Source: Euglena gracilis
Taxonomy: Eukaryota
Assembly: GCA_039621445.1 (NCBI GenBank)
Contig: CP154954.1
Location: 12,084,716 to 12,148,715 of the forward strand
Length of the DNA stretch: 64,000 nt
Direction of reading: 5' to 3'
Shown: positions 1,183-63,839 of the stretch, in pieces
Layout: each line of letters begins with the position of its first letter
Numbering within the stretch: position 1 is the first letter of the stretch
Position numbers and translations under genes: made by a program
The notes under the pieces: model-generated
The model's input: the letters and a program-made list of their open reading frames with translations, nothing else
The model's database searches: none
Told to the model about the DNA's origin: nothing

Positions 1183-1990
1183 AGGTTCCTGGCCACATGC
1201 GAGGAGCTTAGCGAGCGGCGGCGATGGGAGCGGGAGGAGGAGGCGGGTCGGTGGCTCCTGTGGCGCGGTGAGCAGGCTTCGGTGTTTGGAAGGGACGGGC
1301 TGGATGCCTATGGGCAGGCGGGGGGGGGGTTGAATTTGATTCCGAGGGATCAGCTCAGGAGGGAGGGATGAGCTTTGGGTGTGTGGGTGGCGCCCGCTTC
1401 AAAACCCTCCTCGGGCTGCCAACCAAAGGACAGCTTATAACCCGCCCCCGCCCCCCAGTGAAGAAATATGAAAGATGCCTGGACGGTTTTTTCCACTGGA
1501 AAACGCCCACATTTTTGGCAATTTTCACGTGATTGACTATTTCCAAAAATGCCATTTTCGACAATTTTTGCCAAAAATTGCCCATTTGGGGGGATTTTGG
1601 TGTCATTTTTTTGGGGGGGGGGTCTGAATCTCACCATTAACTCCTTGACTCACAACCCCCCCCCCCCCATTTATGGACCACCGCTTCAGCTGACCAACTT
1701 AACGTGATCCTGCAAACCTCGGGTGTTCTAAGTCGGGGGGGGTTCACACCGGTGGCCGGCAAATGGTCATTTCAAGCGACGTTTGCCGTGGGTCGGACCC
1801 AGCCAGGACGCAGACCCACCCACCCCCGGTCGCGGTGTGCCGGCGATGAGCCGGGGCCCACGCGCAGAAGGACACCCCACCCCCCGGGGGTTGGAGAAAG
1901 ACGACGCCTGGCGGCAAGGTGCACCTCGTCGCCCACCGCGAGCGCACCGCCGCCGCCATCCGCATCCAGCGGGCCTGGCGGGGCCACGCC

Positions 1991-2031
<41 letters not shown>

Positions 2032-2757
2032 AGGGGGGAAAAATGCGTTTCGCATTTTTCGCATTTTTGCGCATTTTTTGCGCATTTTCCGGATTTTTTG
2101 GAAAATGCACATTTTTGCGCATTTTTTTCGCATTTTTTTGCGCATTTTTTCGATTTTTTCGCGATTTTTTTTTGCATCTTAAGAATTTCCGACTTTTTTC
2201 ACATGTTGCAGTTTCATTTTGGTTTTTTTGATTTTGATTGTATATTATCAAATTGCTCCTTGACCAATGTTGCATTGACGCTGAGTTATGTTGTTTGATT
2301 TGTGCACTGTTCTGCCCCTTTTTGAAAGAATTTTTTTGCGCATTTTTTCTATTTTCCCACCTTTTTTTACACTTTTTGGAGGCATTTTGTCCATATTGAA
2401 GAAAAAAGCTTTGGGTGATGAGGTGTGGGTATTCATCCAATGATAATGAGGACACTAGGGTTTTCAGAGACCCCGCATCGAATCCTACTCCCCTGGTCAC
2501 AAGTAAGAGGCACCATGGCTGACATTGTTGGTTATGGTGAACAGAGAGTGACGCCTTGCTCATGCATTTTTTTTTTTGGCCAAAAATGCCTTCATTTCAG
2601 CTGTTTTTGGTAATTTTGGTTTAATTTTGGGCTCATTGTTGGAAATTTTTCTAAGTCCTTTTTCCCTTAGGAATGTACAAACTCAGCGCATTTTTTTGCG
2701 CATTTTTTTGCGCATTTTTTTTCCGAGGGCCGCCCAGCGCATCCCCCCCCCCTGGTG

Positions 2758-2791
<34 letters not shown>

Positions 2792-5700
2792 TCCCCCCCC
2801 CCCCCGGGTCCCAGGGTGGTTCTGGAGCCAAAGGGGGCCCCAACAGGGTCCAGGCCACACCATCGCTCAACGTGTGTTCGACGCGGGGGAGTTGATTGAT
2901 TTGTTTCGGAGTGACTGCCTGGATTTGGGCTCTGGATTTGGGCCTATTTTCAAAGGAATGTGCCTGGGCACAGGCCGAAATCCGACCCCCCCCCCCCAGG
3001 GGGTAGTTCCTGCCTGGGCAGGCACTCATAGGCACTCCGGACCCCCCCTCCCCCCCCCCGGGGTTGGTAAAAAACAGCCTGCTCTGGACCCCCAGCCAGG
3101 GGGTGGTCAGCCAGGACTGTTCAAGTGGCCATCAAATTGCCACCAAAGGTGACAAATTTTTTGACTTATTGGCCTGAATCTGTCGATTGAAATCTATTGA
3201 AATCTTGAGGTTCTTTTGGACCGAGAAGCCAGGGTGACCGAAGCGAATCGGTGCACACAGATGTCGTTTTGCGTCGTCGTTCTGTGTCCACCGGACCATA
3301 CCATTGCTCAAGGTGTGTACAACCCTACTCCCCAGGGGGGGAATGACTGGTTTTTTCGGAGTCACTGACTGGTTTTTTGGCTCCAGACCCCCCCCCCCCA
3401 GGGGGGTCAGCCAGGAATGGGCGAAAGTGGCCGGAATTTTCTTTGGGGGTTTTTGACCAAAATCCTTTGGTTTTGAGGCATTTTTTTTTGGCGGTCAGAA
3501 CCGACCCCACCGTGGGGGGGGTAGGGGTGGGATGTCACGGGAGGTTGGTCCGTGGGAGGTAGGTGCCGCGGCCGGCCGCGGCCGACTGTTGCCCAACCAA
3601 AACAAGATTTTGGTTGGGCCGCGGCCGGCCACTCTTCCAGACTCCGTTCCCTCCGTCCTCTGCTAGTGAGTGCAGTGTGATGACGTTCTCCGTGGCAGTT
3701 GGTAATTGGCTCCACATAATATCAAAACCATGGCGTATTTGTAAAAAATAAAATGAAAACATTCACTTAAAAGTAAGTCCCTCTGCGTTTTTCTTCAGAG
3801 ACGAAATAATCTGGAGGAAACCTTTCACCTTTCGGGTAATATCTTCTCTTTGGGCCTGTTCCATGAAACCATAGCATTTACAATAGCCTGGGAGCGCGAC
3901 TCGGCCATCCTTGCCTTGCACACACAAGGGGATTTTGTTATTTTGGGCGGGGGGGGGGTCCGGGGGGGGGCAGCCCCCCCCCCCCCCCGGAGGAGGCCGT
4001 AGGCCGACTAAGTTCGCGTTTTGAGTCATTTTCTTTCATATTTGAATAGGGTTAGGGATAGGGTTAGGGTTAGGGTTAGGGTTAGGGTTAGGGTTCGGGT
4101 TCGGGTTAGGGTTAGGGTTAGGGTTAGGGTTAGGGTTAGGGTTAGGGTTAGGGTTAGGGTTAGGGTTAGGGTTAGGGTTAGGGTTAGGGTTAGGGTTAGG
4201 GTTCGGGTCAGGGTTAGGGTTCGGGTTAGGGTTAGGGTTAGGGTTAGGGTTAGGGTTCGGGTTAGGGTTCGGGTCAGGGTTAGAGTTAGGGTTAGGGTTA
4301 GGGTTAGGGTTAGGGTTAGGGTTAGGGTTAGGGTTAGGGTTAGGGTTAGGGTTAGGGTTAGGGTTAGGGTTAGGGTTAGGGTTAGGGTTAGGGTTAGGGT
4401 TAGGGTTAGGGTTAGGGTTCGGGTTAGGGTTCGGGTTAGGGTTAGGGTTAGGGTTAGGGTTAGGGTTCGGGTTAGGGTTCGGGTTAGGGTTAGAGTTAGG
4501 GTTAGGGTTAGGGTTAGGGTTAGGGTTAGGGTTAGGGTTAGGGTTAGGGTTAGGGTTAGGGTTAGGGGTTAGGGATGGGGTTAGGGTTAGGGTTAGGGAT
4601 GGGGTTAGGGGTGGGGTTAGGGTTAGGGTTAGGGTTAGGGTTAGGGTTAGGGTTAGGGTTAGGGCCAAAAGGAATTTATGAGGTTATTTGAAGGAGTAGG
4701 GTTAGGGTTACGATCCTTTTCCAAACAGCAGAATACATCCCGCTCAACGTTGTTAGATTGGTCTCTACAAGGTACCCAGCGAACCCAAAGAGCCGCCCAA
4801 CTAGGGTTAAAAACATGGGGGGACCCGAGCGAGGCGCCGAAGGCGCCGAGCGAGGGTCCCCCCATGTGTATTAACCCTAGTTGGGCGGCTCTTTGGGGTA
4901 GCTGGTACCTTGTAGGGGCCAATTTATCACGCCCCACACCCCCCCCCCCCCACCCCCCCCCCCAAGTTCGCGTTTTGAGTCATTTTCTTTCATATTTGAA
5001 TAGGGTTAGGGTTAGGGATAGGATTAGGGTTAGGGTTAGGGTTAGGGTTAGGGTTAGGGTTAGGGTCAGGGTTAGGGTTAGGGTTAGGGTTCGGGTTCGG
5101 GTTAGGGTTAGGGTTAGGGTTAGGTTTTCGGGTTAGGGTTAGGGATAGGGTTAGGGTTAGGGTTAGGGTTAGGGTTAGGGTTAGGGTCAGGGTTAGAGTT
5201 AGGTTTTAGGGTGCCTCCGTTTTAGTATGGTCTCCCAGTCAGTCGGTCACCCTGAAAGTGCTGCTGGGACAGTCATGGGAGGTTGGGCCGCGGTCGACCG
5301 CGGCCCAACCATTTTTGTGTTTTTGGTTGGGCCGCGGCCGACCGCGGTCGGCCGCGGCCCAACCAAATTTTTAACCAAGGTTGGGCCGCGGTCGACCGCG
5401 GCCCAACCATTTTTGTGTTTTTGACTGGGCCGCGGCCGGCCGCAGCCCAACCAATTTTTTTTTTGGCTGGACCGCGGCCGGCCGCGGCCCAACCAAAAAC
5501 CCGTTTTGGTTGGGCCGCGGCCGACCGCGGCCGGCCGCGGCCCAACCAACGGCCACCCAACCTCATGTGAACATCCACCCGGGGGGGTAGGAAGAGAGTG
5601 ACTGGTTTTTGGAAAGTGACCCACCCCCCCCCCCCCCCAGGGAGTCGGTAAGCAACGGTATGCTCCGGCCGGCGTTGGAGCCCCCCCGCCCCTCCCCTTC

Positions 5701-6264
5701 GCACAGCGCGGACCGCCCTTCGCCGCCGCCGCACCGCCGCCGTCCGCCTCCAGCGCCTCTTCCGCGGCGGCGCCGCCCGCGCCGCCCAGGCGGCCCGCGT
5801 GGCCAGGCACTTATGGCTAAAATGGCCTAAAATGGCCTGAAATGGCCTAAAATGGCCTGAAATGGCCTGAAATGGCCTGAAATGGCCTAAAATGGCCTGA
5901 AATGGCCTAAAATGGCCTGAAATGGCCTGAAATGGCCTGAAATGGCCTAAAATGGCCTGAAATGGCCTGAAATGGCCTGAAATGGCCTGAAATGGCCTGA
6001 AGTGGCCTAAAATGGGCTGAAATGGCCTGAAATGGCCTGAAATGGCCTGAAATGGCCTAAAATGGCCTAAAGTGGCCTAAAATGGCCTAAAATGGCCTAA
6101 AGTGGCCTAAAATGGCCTAAAATGGCCTGAAATGGCCTAAAATGGCCTAAAATGGGGAAATTTTCGGGCTTGACTATAGGTGCCTGCACGTGGCCGCTGC
6201 CGTCCGCCTCCAGTTCGCCGTCCGCCGCCATCTGCGCCGGCAGCCCGCCCTCACCGCCTCCGCT
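1183..6264 (+). CDS. Multi-IQ-motif (calmodulin-binding) protein, partial; exons ~1183-1269, 1916-1991, 5707-5800, 6192-6264
   Basis: The joined exons read in frame ...GRWLLWRG|KVHLVAHRERTAAAIRIQRAWRGHA|ARTALRRRRTAAVRLQRLFRGGAARAAQAARV|AAAVRLQFAVRRHLRR, giving three IQ-like motifs. Introns: 1270-1915 non-conventional, 1992-5706 GT-AG, 5801-6191 non-conventional. The 5' and 3' ends are not resolved. Confidence 0.75.
4047..4663 (+). repeat. Interstitial telomeric (TTAGGG)n array with TTCGGG/TCAGGG/TTAGAG variants
   Basis: About 100 hexamers read directly; lies inside GT-AG intron 1992-5706. Confidence 0.97.
4757..4923. mobile_element. Foldback/MITE-like hairpin between the telomeric arrays
   Basis: CTACAAGGTACC...AAAGAGCCGCCCAACTAGGGTTAA pairs with TTAACCCTAGTTGGGCGGCTCTTT...GGTACCTTGTAG; the centre contains GGCGCCGAAGGCGCC. 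Confidence 0.8.
5001..5211 (+). repeat. Second interstitial (TTAGGG)n array
   Basis: Read directly; preceded by the same 37-bp leader as the first array. Confidence 0.95.
5279..5564. repeat. Element built from palindromic units GGTTGGGCCGCGG(T/C)CG(A/G)CCGCGGCCCAACC
   Basis: Several self-complementary ~30-bp units separated by A/T tracts, with ends GAGGTTGGG/CCCAACCTC. A degenerate copy lies at ~3541-3632. Confidence 0.75.
5804..6186. mobile_element. hAT-like MITE forming non-conventional intron 5801-6191; contains (AAATGGCCTR)n decamer satellite
   Basis: TIR CAGGCACTTATGG/CTATAGGTGCCTG; flanks CGCGTGGC and CACGTGGC match at 7/8. Confidence 0.9.
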
Positions 6265-23802: not shown

Positions 23803-25262
23803 CAGGCATTATTTTTTTTTAAGGCGAGATTTCTCAAAAAATTTTAAGGCATTTTTTAAGGTTTTTTAAGGTTTTTTAAGGCATTTTGAGGAATTTTAAA
23901 TTTTTTTAAGGTTTTTTAAGGCATTTTTTTTCATTGCAATTGCTTTAAATTTCTGACCCTATTCAGGAGATTTGCTTGCCTGTTGGCCTTAAATATCCTA
24001 AAATGGCCTCAAATGGGGAAATTTTGGGGCTTGACCATAGGTGACCAAGGTTGACTGCTTGTTTTTTTTTGAAGTAAAAAAATGTTTTTTTAAAAAAGCA
24101 TGTTTTTTTAATTTTTTTTAAAAACAATTTTTTATAAATAATTTTTTAAAAAAGAAAACAAGTTTTTTAAAAATATGTGTTTTTTTCAAAAAACGCAACA
24201 AAAAAAGTCTGGAACAACTTAAAAAACGTCACTTTTTGATGACAAAAAATAACTTTAGAACTTTTCCCTCAAAAAATGGCCATTAAACTCCCTCAAACCC
24301 CCATTCTTTCACACCTTCCAAAAATCAATATTTTCTCAAAATTTTGAATTTGAGAGGTTTTTGAAGCAAAAGAAATGCCATTGAAAATCCAACAAATTTG
24401 ACAGAGGAAAATTGTCAGTAAAATTTGACTGTGCCAAAACTTGTTCCACCTTTTTTGACCTTCGTTATTCCCCCCCCCTAAAACTACCAAATTTAACCCT
24501 GAAATCTTTGAGGTTTTTTTTGTCAAAATCAACATTTCTCAAAATTTCAATTTTGAGAGACTTTGGAAGCAAAAAAATGCCACTGAAAATCCAAAAAATT
24601 TCCAAGGAAAAAAATGTCAGTAAAAATTAACTGCTCCAAAATTTGGTCCCATTTTTTTTGACCTGCATTTTTTGACCCCCTCCTAAAAACTAACAGTTTT
24701 CATCCCTAAAATTTTGGTGATTTTTTTGCTTGAAATGCTATGGCAAGTGTGGGAAACTGCTCCAGCGTAGTAAATTGTCCCAAATTGGGAGTTCTTTGTT
24801 GTTCATGCAACTTTTGCTGCAATTGCACTTTTGAGCAATTTGGGTTGACCCCTCTAAGAATGTCTCAAGTAATTCAAATCAAGAAAGATGTGGTTGCAAG
24901 TTTTGCTTATTCTAGCCGTGTGCCACAGCTTTTGGTGAACCGAGGCCAACCGAACTATGCCAGAAACCTTGGCAAACAATCCGGTTTTCATATTGTTTAT
25001 TCACAACCGCTTCTGCATTGACTGGCTTTATGCGGGGTTTCAGACATGCCATTATTTTGTTTGGTGCAAGAAAAAAATTCCCAGGGAGAATTTTTAAGGT
25101 TTTTTAAGGTCATCACGGGGAGAAAAAACTTCCCCGGGGTGATTTTTTTAAGGTTTTTTAAGGTTTTTTAAGGTTTTTTAAGGCATTTTGACAAAAAAAT
25201 TTTTAAGGTTTTTTAAGGTTTTTTAAGGTTTTTTAAGGCACCTTAAAAAATAATAATGCCTG
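23803..25262. mobile_element. hAT-like non-autonomous element with TTTTTTAAGG subterminal repeats
   Basis: TIR CAGGCATTATT/AATAATGCCTG; perfect 8-bp TSD GTAAAAGA at 23795-23802 and 25263-25270. Confidence 0.92.
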
Positions 25263-28616: not shown

Positions 28617-30170
28617 TACCTCTTTCCATCCCCCCCCCACATTTTTCCAGTTTTCCGGTGGCTGGTGGATTGTTTTTTTCCTCTAAATCGTTCGGCTCCG
28701 ACTCCCTTCTTTTCACCCCCCCTCTCCCGCGCTGCTTATTAGCCCGCTGACCTCTGGACCCCCCGCCGAAGCCACAGCAGAATGCGGTCCCCCCGCAGTG
28801 TTGGCCGTCCCAAAGCTCTCTGCTGCCTGACCTTTGACCCCCTTCTTGACCCGACCCCCTTAACAGTGGTTCAAGGATTTGGCTTTCAGTCTCGGAGTGT
28901 ATGGAGTGGTCTGTTGCGACACAGTGCGTACCGTTCTGTTCGTTGTGATTTCTGGCCAGGGGGGATCAGCTCCGAGGCCCGAGAGGCAAGCCACAATCCT
29001 CTCATCACAACAGTTCTGCTTTGAAAGTGCCCCTGTTTTCCCTTACAGCTCGGGTTTTCCCTTACAGAAACGAAGGGCTCCCACAACCAGCTCTGCCGGT
29101 CTGTCTCCCGTTCTACACAATTCTTTTTTAACACATCCCTCCGATGGTATTTTTCTGTGCCAAAGAGTGCACACTACATAACAAAGAATGCTTCCAGAAT
29201 ATGTTTCCAAAATACCTGCCTTGTCCAAGAACCATTCCCCTTGTTTCCCACCCCTCTTTTCAAAGGTTTTCTTCCTGTGATTCAATTGTAGTTTGTGATA
29301 GAACTTTCGAAAATTGTGATACTACAGGAAGCTCTGCGTCCTTCAACAGACACACAAACTCAAAGGTAATTTTCCTTTTTCTTGTGCAAGCACATTTTTG
29401 TGTCCGGTTGCTCCTCCCTTATCCAAGCACCACCCCTGGTTCTTGTGCATGGTTTGGCCAAATGAGCACCAACCCCCAGTTCTTATCCATCTTTCCCTTT
29501 TCAACAAGGGGAGGTACATTTTGGTTGACTTTGACTCCTTGTGAGCCTTTTGGAGGTTGGAAAAAGCTGGCTCATTTCTTCCAGCAAAACTAACCCCCTT
29601 GGGTTGTGTGTGTGCGCGCGCGTGCGTGTGCGTGTGTGCGTGCGTGTGCGTGTACGTGTGCGTGTGCGTGTATGCATGTGTGGAATTTTGACCCCCCCCC
29701 CAAATAACCTGCCCAAATTGACCTTTTTTTTTGCATTTTTAAAGCATTTTTTTTGGCTTTTTTTTAGGAACAATTTAAATTTTCTACACAAAAAGGCACG
29801 TCAGAAAACATTTCCACAGCTGGAGGAGGAACACGCAGGACTCCCCCCCCTCAGGGGGCCTTGCTAGTAGCTTTCTGGATGCAGCTTGTGGAAATCCCCG
29901 CCAACCTCTTTTAGGGAAGGTCGCTCCCCTCCAGGGGGTGGGTGTGTGGACAGGCAAAGGGCGTAGGGCATTTTCGACCCCGGGGGGGGGGGGCGGGTGT
30001 TGGGGTGGTACCCCCCCAGCTGTTTTAAAGGGAAAGTGGCGTGGGTGTGCCGAGGCTGGGGCCCAAACCTGACCTCCCCCTGGGAAGGGGTAGCCCGCTG
30101 GGGCGGGCACCCCATAGCACATGTTACTGCCTCCACCCCCCCCCCCCGGATTTGGTAAAAGAAGGCCGAT

Positions 30171-30264
30171 CAAGCACCTATAGTAAAAATGGCCGAAAAT
30201 GGCCGAAACTGGCCAAAAATGGCCGAAAATGGCCGAAGATCCGGGGGTCAGCTATAGGTGCTTG
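30171..30264. mobile_element. 94-bp hAT-like MITE, same family as intron 5801-6191
   Basis: TIR CAAGCACCTATAG/CTATAGGTGCTTG; perfect TSD AGGCCGAT; internal AAAATGGCCG decamers. Confidence 0.92.
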
Positions 30265-30409
30265 AGGCCGATCTCAGCCAGGGGACCCCTGGGGGATCGT
30301 TGAGCCGAGCGCTGATCCCTGATTGTCCCAAGCGGCCAAACTGAGAGGCCCCGCCCGGCTTGGATTTTGTCTCCCGTGCTCAGCCCGCGCCGGCGCCCCC
30401 GCCCCTCCG

Positions 30410-33400
30410 ATGCCGCTCACCCCGGCGGTCCCCGCCAAGCCCTGGTCAGGCTTCTTTTTAAGTCACCTGCCCCCCCCCCCCGGGCAGGGTTGGATGGGAA
30501 GCCCTTCGGTATTGAGGTAGGTGGTAGGGGGGGGGGTCGCTGAGCTCTTATCCCTTTATGGGTAAGAGCGAAGCTTACCACTGGGGGAAAACCCCCCCTC
30601 GACCCGCCCCCCCCTCCCCCCCCCCCTCGGGGCCACCTCGGGAACCGGCGGATTATCACCATGATCCCGGCCCCGTTCCCGAAATTTTTTTTTTCAGTCG
30701 CAAGCGACTGGATTCCTAGTTTCCGAATCACCTGAGTTTGACCCCCAACTCCCCGCCAGGCCCGAGTTATTCACGCGCGAAGGGGTCCAAACTGGGTAGG
30801 ATTGGCCAACCCCCCTGGATAAGCCCCCCCCCTTTGGACGGGCAAAAAAAAGTCAATTTTCAAAATATCTCCAAAATGAAGCAAAATCAAAGGAAATGTC
30901 CGGAGACCTAATTTGAAGCCCTTGGAACGCCCCATATGCCGGTATTTTGATTTCCCCGCAACTCTCCGCCTGGCCCGAGATACGGCCGTTTTTGGCCCGG
31001 ATGGCCGTTTTGTACACTTTTTCCACTGTTCGACTTAGCCGTTTTCGGGGGGTGGGGGGTCAAAAAACGAATGTTTTCAAAATTTCTCGAAAATGTTGCA
31101 AAATCAAAGGAAATGTCCGGAGACCTAAATTGAAGCCCTTGGAACGCTCTATCTACTGGGACTTTGGTTTCCCCACAACTCCCCGCCCAGCCCGAGATAC
31201 GGGCGTTTTTTGGCCAATTTGAGCCGTTTCAGGCCATTTTGTACACTTTTCCCTCTGTTCGACTTGGCCGTTTTCGGCCCAAAAAAGTCGAAAAAAATCG
31301 AAAAAATTTTTTTGGCCCGAAACGATGTTTTTGGGCCTCCCGGACCCGGAAAAACTGTTTTTGAGCCGAAAACGAGCGCTTTTCGACCCGCCAGCGCCCC
31401 GTTTTGGGCCGCCGACCCATTGACTTTGGGTCAAAACCGGGTCAAAAAGTCGAAAAAAATCGAAAATTTTTTTTTGGCCCGAAACGATGTTTTTTGGCCT
31501 CCCGGACCTGGAAAAACTGTTTTTGAGCCGGAAACGAGCGCTTTTCGACCCGCCAGCGCCCCGTTTCGGGCCGCCGACCCATTGATTTTGGGTCAAAAAG
31601 TCGAAAAAATCGAAAAAAAATCGAAAAATTTTTTTTGCCCGAAACGATGTTTTTTGGCCTCCCGCACCCGGAAAAACTGTTTTTGAGCCGAAAACGAGCG
31701 TTTTTCGACCCGCCAGCGCCCCGTTTTGGGCCGCCGACCCATTGACTTTGGGTCAAAACCGGGTCAAAAAAGTCAAAAAAAATCGAAAAAATGTTTTGCC
31801 CGAAACGATGTTTTTGGGCCTCCCGGACCCGGAAAAACTGTTTTTGAGCCGAAAACGAGCGTTTTTCGACCCGCCAGCGCCCCGTTTTGGACCGCCGACC
31901 CATTGACTTTGGGTCAAAGCCGGGTCAAAAAAGTCGAAAAAATTCGAAAAATTTTTTTTTGCCCCAAACGATGTTTTTTGGCCTCTCGGACCCAGAAAAA
32001 CTGTTTTGAGCCGAAAACGAGCGTTTTTCGACCCGCCAGCGCCCCGTTTTGGACCGCCGACCCATTGACTTTGGGTCAAAACCGGGTCAAACCGGGCCGC
32101 CGGGCTGCCGGGCCGTCGGGCCGCCGGGCCGGGGTCAATGAAGGGGTGGGGGCGCGCTTATAAAGAGCTCAGCACTATTCAAAACCTGGTCCCGACCCCC
32201 CCCCTGGGGGGGTAAGGTGGTGGGGGGGGTCCGGACCCCCCCTGATAGCAGAAAATTTTCTTCCGGCGCTGCGCGCCAGAAAATGAGCAAAAAAACACCC
32301 CTTTTGCTGACTTTTGGTAATATTGCCCATTTTTTTGATGTGTTGGTGTTTTCCCCCAAAAATATCTTCAAAAAAATTCAAAATATGAGCATTTTTGGAT
32401 CGATTTTCAAAGAAAATTCAGGGTTTTTTGACCGATTCCGATCCAATTTCCGGCCCTTTCCCCGTCCATGAAATCGAAAAAGTTTCGGCCCCCCCTCAGT
32501 TTCGAGGTAGGAGGGGGTCCGACCCGTGTCGGAAGGGGGGGTCCGACCCCCCCCCCCCCCCTCAAGGCTTCCCATCCATCCCTGCCCCCGGGGGATGGGT
32601 GGGTCCGGACCCCCGCCGGGGGGGGGGGTCCCGCGCCGGAGGCGCTGGGTATCCGTTTTGAGCACGAAGCGCCGAAAATTTTTGATAATTGCCTTTAACG
32701 GGCCCGATTTTGGGGGGGGGTCCCGCGCCACCCTGGGTGGGTGGGGGACCCCCCCTCCCGGGGGTCTTAAAAAGAAGCCTGGCCCTGGTCACAGTGGGAG
32801 AACTACCGGAAGCTCAAGAAGCTGGTCGCCACCGGGTCCTACCGGCCCCCAGAATGGTGTGTCCCCCCTATGCCACCCCATCTCTGCCCGATGAACCCAC
32901 CCATGGAAATGCTCGGTGGCCAGGCCGAGCTTTTTTCCCCGGGATGGTCGCACCCATACCATTGTTAACACCTGTCCCACCCCCCCACCCCCGGGGGGGT
33001 GACTGACTGGTTTTTTCATAGTGACTGACTGGTTTTCTGGCCAAGAACCCCCCCCCCCCCCGTGGTGGGGTAGGCCCGAAAATGGAAAAGTGGCTGGCCT
33101 TGCGACGATGGCACCGGAAATTTTTTGAGACTTTTTGGCAAATTTTCCCTTTGACAAAAATTTGGCAAAAATTGCCTCCTCCTCATCATTCAAGAGTGGC
33201 CTATCCCCCGGGGGGGGGTAAAGTGACTGACTGGCTTTTTGGGGAAAAGTGACTGATTGTTTTTATCAGAATGGACAGTGGCCCCCCCCTCCCCCCCCCC
33301 CAGGGATCGCTAAGCAATGGTATGGTCGCACCCCCCCCTCTGAAGCTCTGGAGGCAGGGAGAGAATTGATCTCTACAATTTTCCCGCAATTTCCGCAATT

Positions 33401-44202: not shown

Positions 44203-63839
<19,637 letters not shown>

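Follow-up and report, generated by a model that had tools for sequence, protein, structure and literature searches.

A hAT-like MITE as a probable recently gained nonconventional intron in Euglena gracilis

Results

Within the window, i.e. the whole stretch of 64,000 nucleotides of Euglena gracilis DNA that was analysed, an exon of a B-box/IQ gene is split by a 383-bp non-autonomous element, present in one of three copies of the exon. The element is most probably a nonconventional intron recently gained from a hAT-like MITE, cut out with exactly one copy of its target duplication. Coordinates of the features are given in Table 1.

Table 1. Features of the split exon and of related or neighbouring elements in the window
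Feature	Position	Strand	Remarks
Upstream exon of B-box/IQ gene	1913..1991	+	RNA, P0002
GT-AG intron of B-box/IQ gene	1992-5706	+	Joins exons 1913-1991 and 5707 onward
5' part of split exon	5707..5800	+	IQ-like motif LQRLFRG; joined to exon ending 1991
Left copy of 8-bp target duplication	5796..5803	+	CGCGTGGC; positions 1-5 exonic, 6-8 intronic by the 3+5 rule
Probable nonconventional intron, 391 nt (element + one duplication)	5801..6191	+	Register inferred from published rule
Non-autonomous element, 383 bp	5804..6186	+	Inverted ends 5804-5816 / 6174-6186; 33 decamers 5820-6149
Right copy of 8-bp target duplication	6187..6194	+	CACGTGGC; positions 1-5 intronic, 6-8 exonic
3' part of split exon	6192..6264	+	IQ-like motif LQFAVRR; next exon from 7626
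Host element of remnant, 1,460 bp	23803..25262	+	Ends CAGGCATTATT, duplication GTAAAAGA
Right-end remnant of family	23988..24043	+	Passenger inside element 23803-25262
CAA/TTG-ended sister element, 94 bp (30171-30264) + duplication AGGCCGAT	30163..30272	+	About 145 bp upstream of ATG 30410
Unrelated element, 2,335 bp	30447..32781	+	Perfect CAGGCTTCTTTTTAAG ends, perfect 8-bp duplication; inside coding frame
CAGGC-ended element, 386 bp, 8-bp duplication	60632..61017	+	Both ends ~90 % identical to the L170 element

Element and host gene

The protein derived from the exon matched one database entry, P0002 (980 aa, source label Euglena gracilis), and the host gene carries PF00612 and PF00643. Both the RNA and P0002 give the plus strand, and a minus-strand reading of the split exon was thereby ruled out. 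The reading frame of the exon is restored once 391 nt, i.e. the element and one duplication, are taken out; if the element were retained in the transcript, a stop would be met 13 codons inside it. The GT-AG intron of the gene contains two interstitial TTAGGG arrays (4050-4665 and 5003-5207), one on either side of a 300-bp segment in which inverted repeats occur.

The tips of the element are CAGGCACTTATGG and CTATAGGTGCCTG, the left end starting with CAG. At the ends, 11 of 13 positions are complementary and both departures are G-U pairs in RNA, giving a terminal stem of 13 pairs; the z value over the whole stretch is -12, to which the decamer array contributes. The 33 decamers (17 AAATGGCCTG, 12 AAATGGCCTA and 4 variants) are followed by a short right end. 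An initial annotation, based on the letters alone, had described an intron at 5801-6191 with inverted ends, a near-perfect target duplication and decamers, and all of these were found there. The family to which the element belongs has the properties of MITEs: inverted ends, a fixed duplication length, high copy number, noncoding sequence and empty sites.

Empty alleles and target duplication

In the E. gracilis genome (2.37 Gb, 46 contigs) three copies of the B-box/IQ exon were found, the two others being on the same contig as the window copy. Both are continuous, element-free and have a single target, CATGTGGC. A filled site together with two empty alleles having a single target proves insertion with an exact 8-bp duplication. 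The empty alleles differ from the window at 5769, 5784, 5797 and 5798. The genes tested on contig C1 were present in two or three near-identical copies on that contig, which is consistent with uncollapsed haplotypes and inflates copy counts.

The single mismatch between the two duplication copies had been taken in the initial annotation, which placed it in the intronic part, as a sign of constraint on the exon. This argument carries no information, since a 3+5 cut leaves, for every duplicated position, one copy in the exon and the other in the intron. At the mismatch position the empty alleles agree with the intronic copy and the exonic copy is the odd one (Arg vs His), and the codon varies between alleles. 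A change in the exonic copy is the more parsimonious (2 vs 3 steps); protein searches with the exon found no outgroup protein to polarise the His/Arg difference. Of the 15 mismatched positions seen between duplication copies across the family, 6 are CpG transitions, which hints at methylation of CpG in the E. gracilis genome.

RNA evidence for removal

From four raw RNA runs of two studies, chosen by species label, a sample of approximately 5 % each was aligned to the left flank of the element with a likeness cut-off of 99 %, which excludes reads bearing the four empty-allele differences. At this cut-off 8 reads aligned, and 4 of them cover carrier-specific positions (two in run X21, one in X22 and one in X24). 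Both carrier-letter reads that reach 5804 stop there and proceed with other letters; one of the remaining two ends at 5799 by read length and the other at about 5782. The depth at 5805-5830 was zero in all four runs, no read enters the element, and also before the cut-off was applied all records reaching 5804 stopped there. In that wider set, three reads of run X24, among them its carrier-letter read, break off at 5804 and resume at window position 6196 onward (agreement 0.99), and one of these three has zero differences from the window. Of the two carrier junction reads, this continuation was read for the one from X24, the other being from X21.

Carrier letters were present in mature spliced reads in three runs from two studies and in 2 of 5 raw reads over 5769, approximately the expectation for one of three copies. 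The carrier allele is expressed as processed RNA and, judged from 2 junction reads, very probably spliced. As two of the three copies are empty, most spliced RNA is uninformative on the removal of the element. cDNA retaining the segment, which the initial annotation had named as the observation that would speak against it, was not seen in the four runs, which yielded two carrier junction reads. Its proposal that the MITE serves as intron 5801-6191 is supported to the extent that both of these informative reads leave at the junction, with the 391-nt skip read in the X24 one, and relatives outside exons do occur.

Eight cut registers of the 391-nt intron yield an identical mRNA, and none of them is GT/GC-AG. 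The mRNA retains G5797, which places the cut after 5797.

Family size and target preference

The exact right-end 18-mer of the family occurs 3,337 times in the genome (reversed control 0), and 875 of these right ends share one flank, riding in another repeat. The family ends are CA(A/G)GCACCTATAG, with 1,057 CAG and 1,186 CAA left ends (total 2,243). Many loci are present in two or three near-identical copies, and the number of independent insertions is accordingly smaller. From 181 left-end matches in the fetched loci, 63 without a right end were dropped, and the remaining 118 rows gave 80 distinct paired sites, a non-random sample drawn from the first matches on three contigs and a few others. 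The long unpaired copies were considered as a special class, which was rejected, as they are ordinary 1.4-2.3-kb or nested copies. Copy lengths range from 73 bp to 5.7 kb, mainly 1.2-2.3 kb.

The 8-bp duplication is perfect at 58 of the 80 sites and has at most one mismatch at 71; perfect duplications of 7 bp and 9 bp, as length controls, were found at 1/80 and 0/80 sites, respectively. Among the 72 sites whose duplication copies differ at no more than two positions, the target consensus is S Y Y R Y R R S, with T at position 2 in 39 and A at position 7 in 33. The genome-wide search for the inverted ends and the sorting of copies called for in the initial annotation thus gave 2,243 left ends and, by a codon screen, 7 exon-like sites out of 72 (3 CAG, 4 CAA). 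The idea that CAA-ended copies are kept out of exons found no support, since they make up 4 of these 7. Besides the B-box/IQ site, the exon-like copies L005 (CAG) and L228 (CAA) each have two empty alleles, and for L023/L025 (CAA) the two alleles are filled; a transcript protein search across L023 gave only 5 distant relatives (52-68 %).

At the 65 sites that are not exon-like, Y5 was found in 46, R6 in 49 and C8 in 37. Y5 and R6 occurred jointly in 35 of the 65, compared to 16.5 in within-site shuffles (p ~5e-5), and Y|R was present in 29 of 130 8-mers just outside the duplication. The Y5R6 bias is strong in CAA copies (22/35) and weaker in CAG copies (13/30; Y5 alone not significant). The junction consensus thus exists, as a target preference of the family, at sites where splicing cannot have selected it.

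At L267-L270, two tandem paralogues carry different elements a few codons apart, each being empty at the site of the other: one has a CAA-ended family copy, the other an element of 102 bp that is CAG-ended and flanked by a perfect 8-bp duplication. By its motifs we take this gene to be methyltransferase-like.

Relation to hAT transposons

The 8-bp duplication, the 13-bp inverted ends, the subterminal decamer arrays and the T2/A7 target are hAT-like traits of the family; the target of Hermes is nTnnnnAn, according to the accessible part of PMC10368747. The genome contains at least 150 matches to the hAT dimerisation domain among 1,518 candidates. A search of 36 hAT loci of 10 kb, 30 of 3 kb and the long family copies gave no autonomous hAT partner with the ends of the family. 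L130 was rejected as such a partner, being a family copy inserted behind a hAT frame. A CAA-ended family copy lies just behind the hAT frame in L130, L168 and L172, and L170 is empty at that place.

L170 contains, at 2043-4982, a 2,940-bp element with perfect CAGGCTTTTGCTTAAGGG ends (CAGGC), an 8-bp duplication and a PF05699 match (E 7.6e-10); its hAT transposase domain is apparently split by introns. Judged from the sequence, the window element 60632-61017 is a deletion derivative of this hAT element. The CAGGC sister family and the family of 5804-6186 have five terminal bases in common and no internal sequence. The direct link to hAT holds only for the CAGGC sister family, and the 5804-6186 element is likely to belong to the hAT superfamily.

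When fetched DNA amounting to 1.5 Mb, a set biased towards the 5804-6186 family, was scanned for inverted ends, 87 elements had an 8-bp duplication and 71 of these started with CAG or CAA; the corresponding totals for duplications of 7 bp and 9 bp were 7 and 2 elements. Among the CAG elements, about 20 belong to other families. L125, L129 and L182 are hAT-domain elements with 8-bp duplications whose CAT-starting ends fall outside the CDG rule described below.

Other elements in the window

The 94-bp element 30171-30264 with its perfect duplication is present as initially annotated and, by its position, is non-exonic. Its assignment to the same family needs modification: it is a relative from a sister subfamily, with CAA/TTG ends, another decamer and another right end. 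It arose by internal deletion from a 550-bp copy, which both other alleles carry, the insertion being fixed in all three. An acidic repeat in the 550-bp sister was considered as a transposase tail and rejected, as no longer parent was found among 40 loci and there was no protein match. The label mS23-like given to the neighbouring gene was not confirmed, its two short exons having no Pfam match.

The third remnant, noted previously as ending at about 24043, does exist; however, it is not an independent insertion, being inside element 23803-25262 with the flank common to 875 right ends. Of the two other alleles (L277-L280), one contains the latter element and one has a clean empty site. The CAG-ended element 30447-32781 interrupts the neighbouring gene in its first coding stretch, and removal by the 3+5 rule would restore an open frame.

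Discussion

Knock-in work has defined the signal of euglenid nonconventional introns as N3-CDG / CH'G-N5-6|R, in which the spacers measure 3 and 5 nt and the ends pair (PMC12501133). Earlier comparison of introns has given Y|R as the rule for the two junctions and C as that for the third base of the following exon (PMC4770533), as far as the accessible text of these papers goes. In 5801-6191, CAG at +4..+6 pairs with CTG at -8..-6 in an extended stem, and the downstream exon starts with a purine (G6192), as in euglenid nonconventional introns. The Y|R and C rules of PMC4770533 correspond to duplication positions 5, 6 and 8. Because 3+5 = 8, a CAG-tipped element flanked by an 8-bp duplication follows the splice rule by construction, in either orientation. 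The CAA/TTG ends, about half of the family, do not fit CDG/CH'G.

We propose that a transposase would have inserted the element through an 8-nt staggered cut, and that the inverted ends would pair in the pre-mRNA. The euglenid nonconventional system would cut 3 nt upstream of CAG and 5 nt downstream of CTG, and the original exon would be rebuilt scarless with the element in either orientation, since 3+5 = 8. About three quarters of the sites would owe the purine that opens the downstream exon to the target preference (Y5, R6, C8), and many exonic insertions would be introns on arrival. The splicing code may have descended from the target preference of the family. In a wider reading the Euglena nonconventional code would be a hAT footprint, with the tips giving CAG/CTG, the duplication giving the 3+5 spacers and the target preference giving Y|R and C, and host repair of hAT insertions at the RNA level would have made most introns and would continue to do so; we consider the chances of this wider reading to be evenly balanced. 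If it holds, alleles differing by an intron inside one cell mean that intron making is still ongoing.

It is improbable that the insertion is silent or null, the cell living on its two empty copies and the carrier-letter reads coming from an element-free haplotype absent from the assembly. Two of the three copies are empty, and the one full RNA contig, X1, and P0002 are both products of empty alleles, which rules them out as proof of splicing and fits a silent allele, as does the number of informative junction reads, only 2; the RNA runs may also derive from other strains, possibly with the carrier letters but without the element. Against this, the carrier letters are found in spliced reads of three runs and two studies, and in 2 of 5 reads at 5769, no read enters the element, and searching the genome turned up only three copies.

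Slightly less probable still is a reading in which the element does act as an intron but comes from a superfamily other than hAT that also makes 8-bp duplications (P, Merlin, Mutator-like or Zisupton). The failure to find a hAT partner with the ends of the family would agree with this, and Merlin families with 8-bp duplications are described for E. gracilis in the accessible part of PMC8101967. However, Merlin elements have terminal GG and the ends of this family are CAG or CAA, the T2/A7 bias and the subterminal repeat arrays are hAT-like, the CAGGC sister family is hAT, and the genome contains the hAT dimerisation matches mentioned above. A search with PF21787 (P-type) gave no match in the genome and none in the controls either, and was therefore uninformative. 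Very improbable is an origin in the repair of a double-strand break, with filler DNA taken up and an 8-nt repeat left behind. Repair of this kind was suggested for the gapC intron, which is newly gained and has eight-nucleotide direct repeats (PMC4770533, accessible text), but the insert in the B-box/IQ exon is a complete copy from a family that numbers thousands of ends in the genome, with constant tips and, at 71 of 80 sites, a duplication of the constant length of 8 bp, and the family counts, empty alleles and duplication statistics already contradict break repair here. An intron gained from a hAT-like MITE remains our preferred explanation.

A MITE origin of euglenid nonconventional introns was proposed in 2014 (PMC3935182) and repeated in 2024-2025, and the accessible texts of PMC12501133, PMC4770533 and PMC11170887 term the origin unclear or refer to MITEs in general. 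No paper was found that names hAT or ties an 8-bp duplication to the 3+5 spacers, although subscription papers, supplements and theses may hold such a statement. As in 5801-6191, the introns in these three papers have CAG at +4, CTG at -8..-6, paired ends and a downstream purine, and euglenid nonconventional introns have Y|R junctions, C at +3, a slidable direct repeat and no GT-AG register. No family and no hAT element is named for them in the parts available, whereas 5801-6191 is a whole family member with empty alleles alongside. Inverted ends, duplication-like repeats and gain within a species are shared with the MITE-origin hypothesis (PMC3935182, PMC11282704) and the gapC intron (PMC4770533). 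The latter, reported in 2016, is strain-specific, has 8-nt repeats and was read as break repair with no family given in the accessible text; in contrast, a family, its target preference and a transposase-bearing sister family were measured here.

The introners of Micromonas, Aureococcus-type algae, Fritillaria, Amoebophrya and Polarella are, according to the accessible text of PMC11282704, likewise non-autonomous DNA elements removed scarlessly with one duplication. They are removed by the spliceosome or by bending its rules, and their duplications are short, with 3 nt in Micromonas and 3-5 nt in Amoebophrya. The Euglena element, unlike these, has both signals in its tips, an 8-bp duplication and removal in either orientation, thought to be non-spliceosomal, and about a tenth of the sampled family copies are exon-like, with RNA examined for one. 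With hAT MITEs and Ds-type elements (Hermes, PMC10368747, in part) the family shares the 8-bp duplication, short imperfect ends, unlike left and right ends, subterminal repeats and T2/A7; it differs from them in that no cognate transposase was found and in its broader target consensus.

Nonconventional introns are the majority in Euglena, making up 71.8 % of the introns in E. agilis, and in the knock-in work the donor exon end had no base requirement and the junction rules were only partly necessary for splicing (PMC12501133, accessible text). A target preference that equals the junction consensus would explain these rules. The CAA/TTG half of the family offers a natural way to tell whether G at +6 is required by the code or pairing alone suffices. 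With a filled allele beside two empty ones, the ten-year-old MITE hypothesis obtains a before-and-after pair in one strain.
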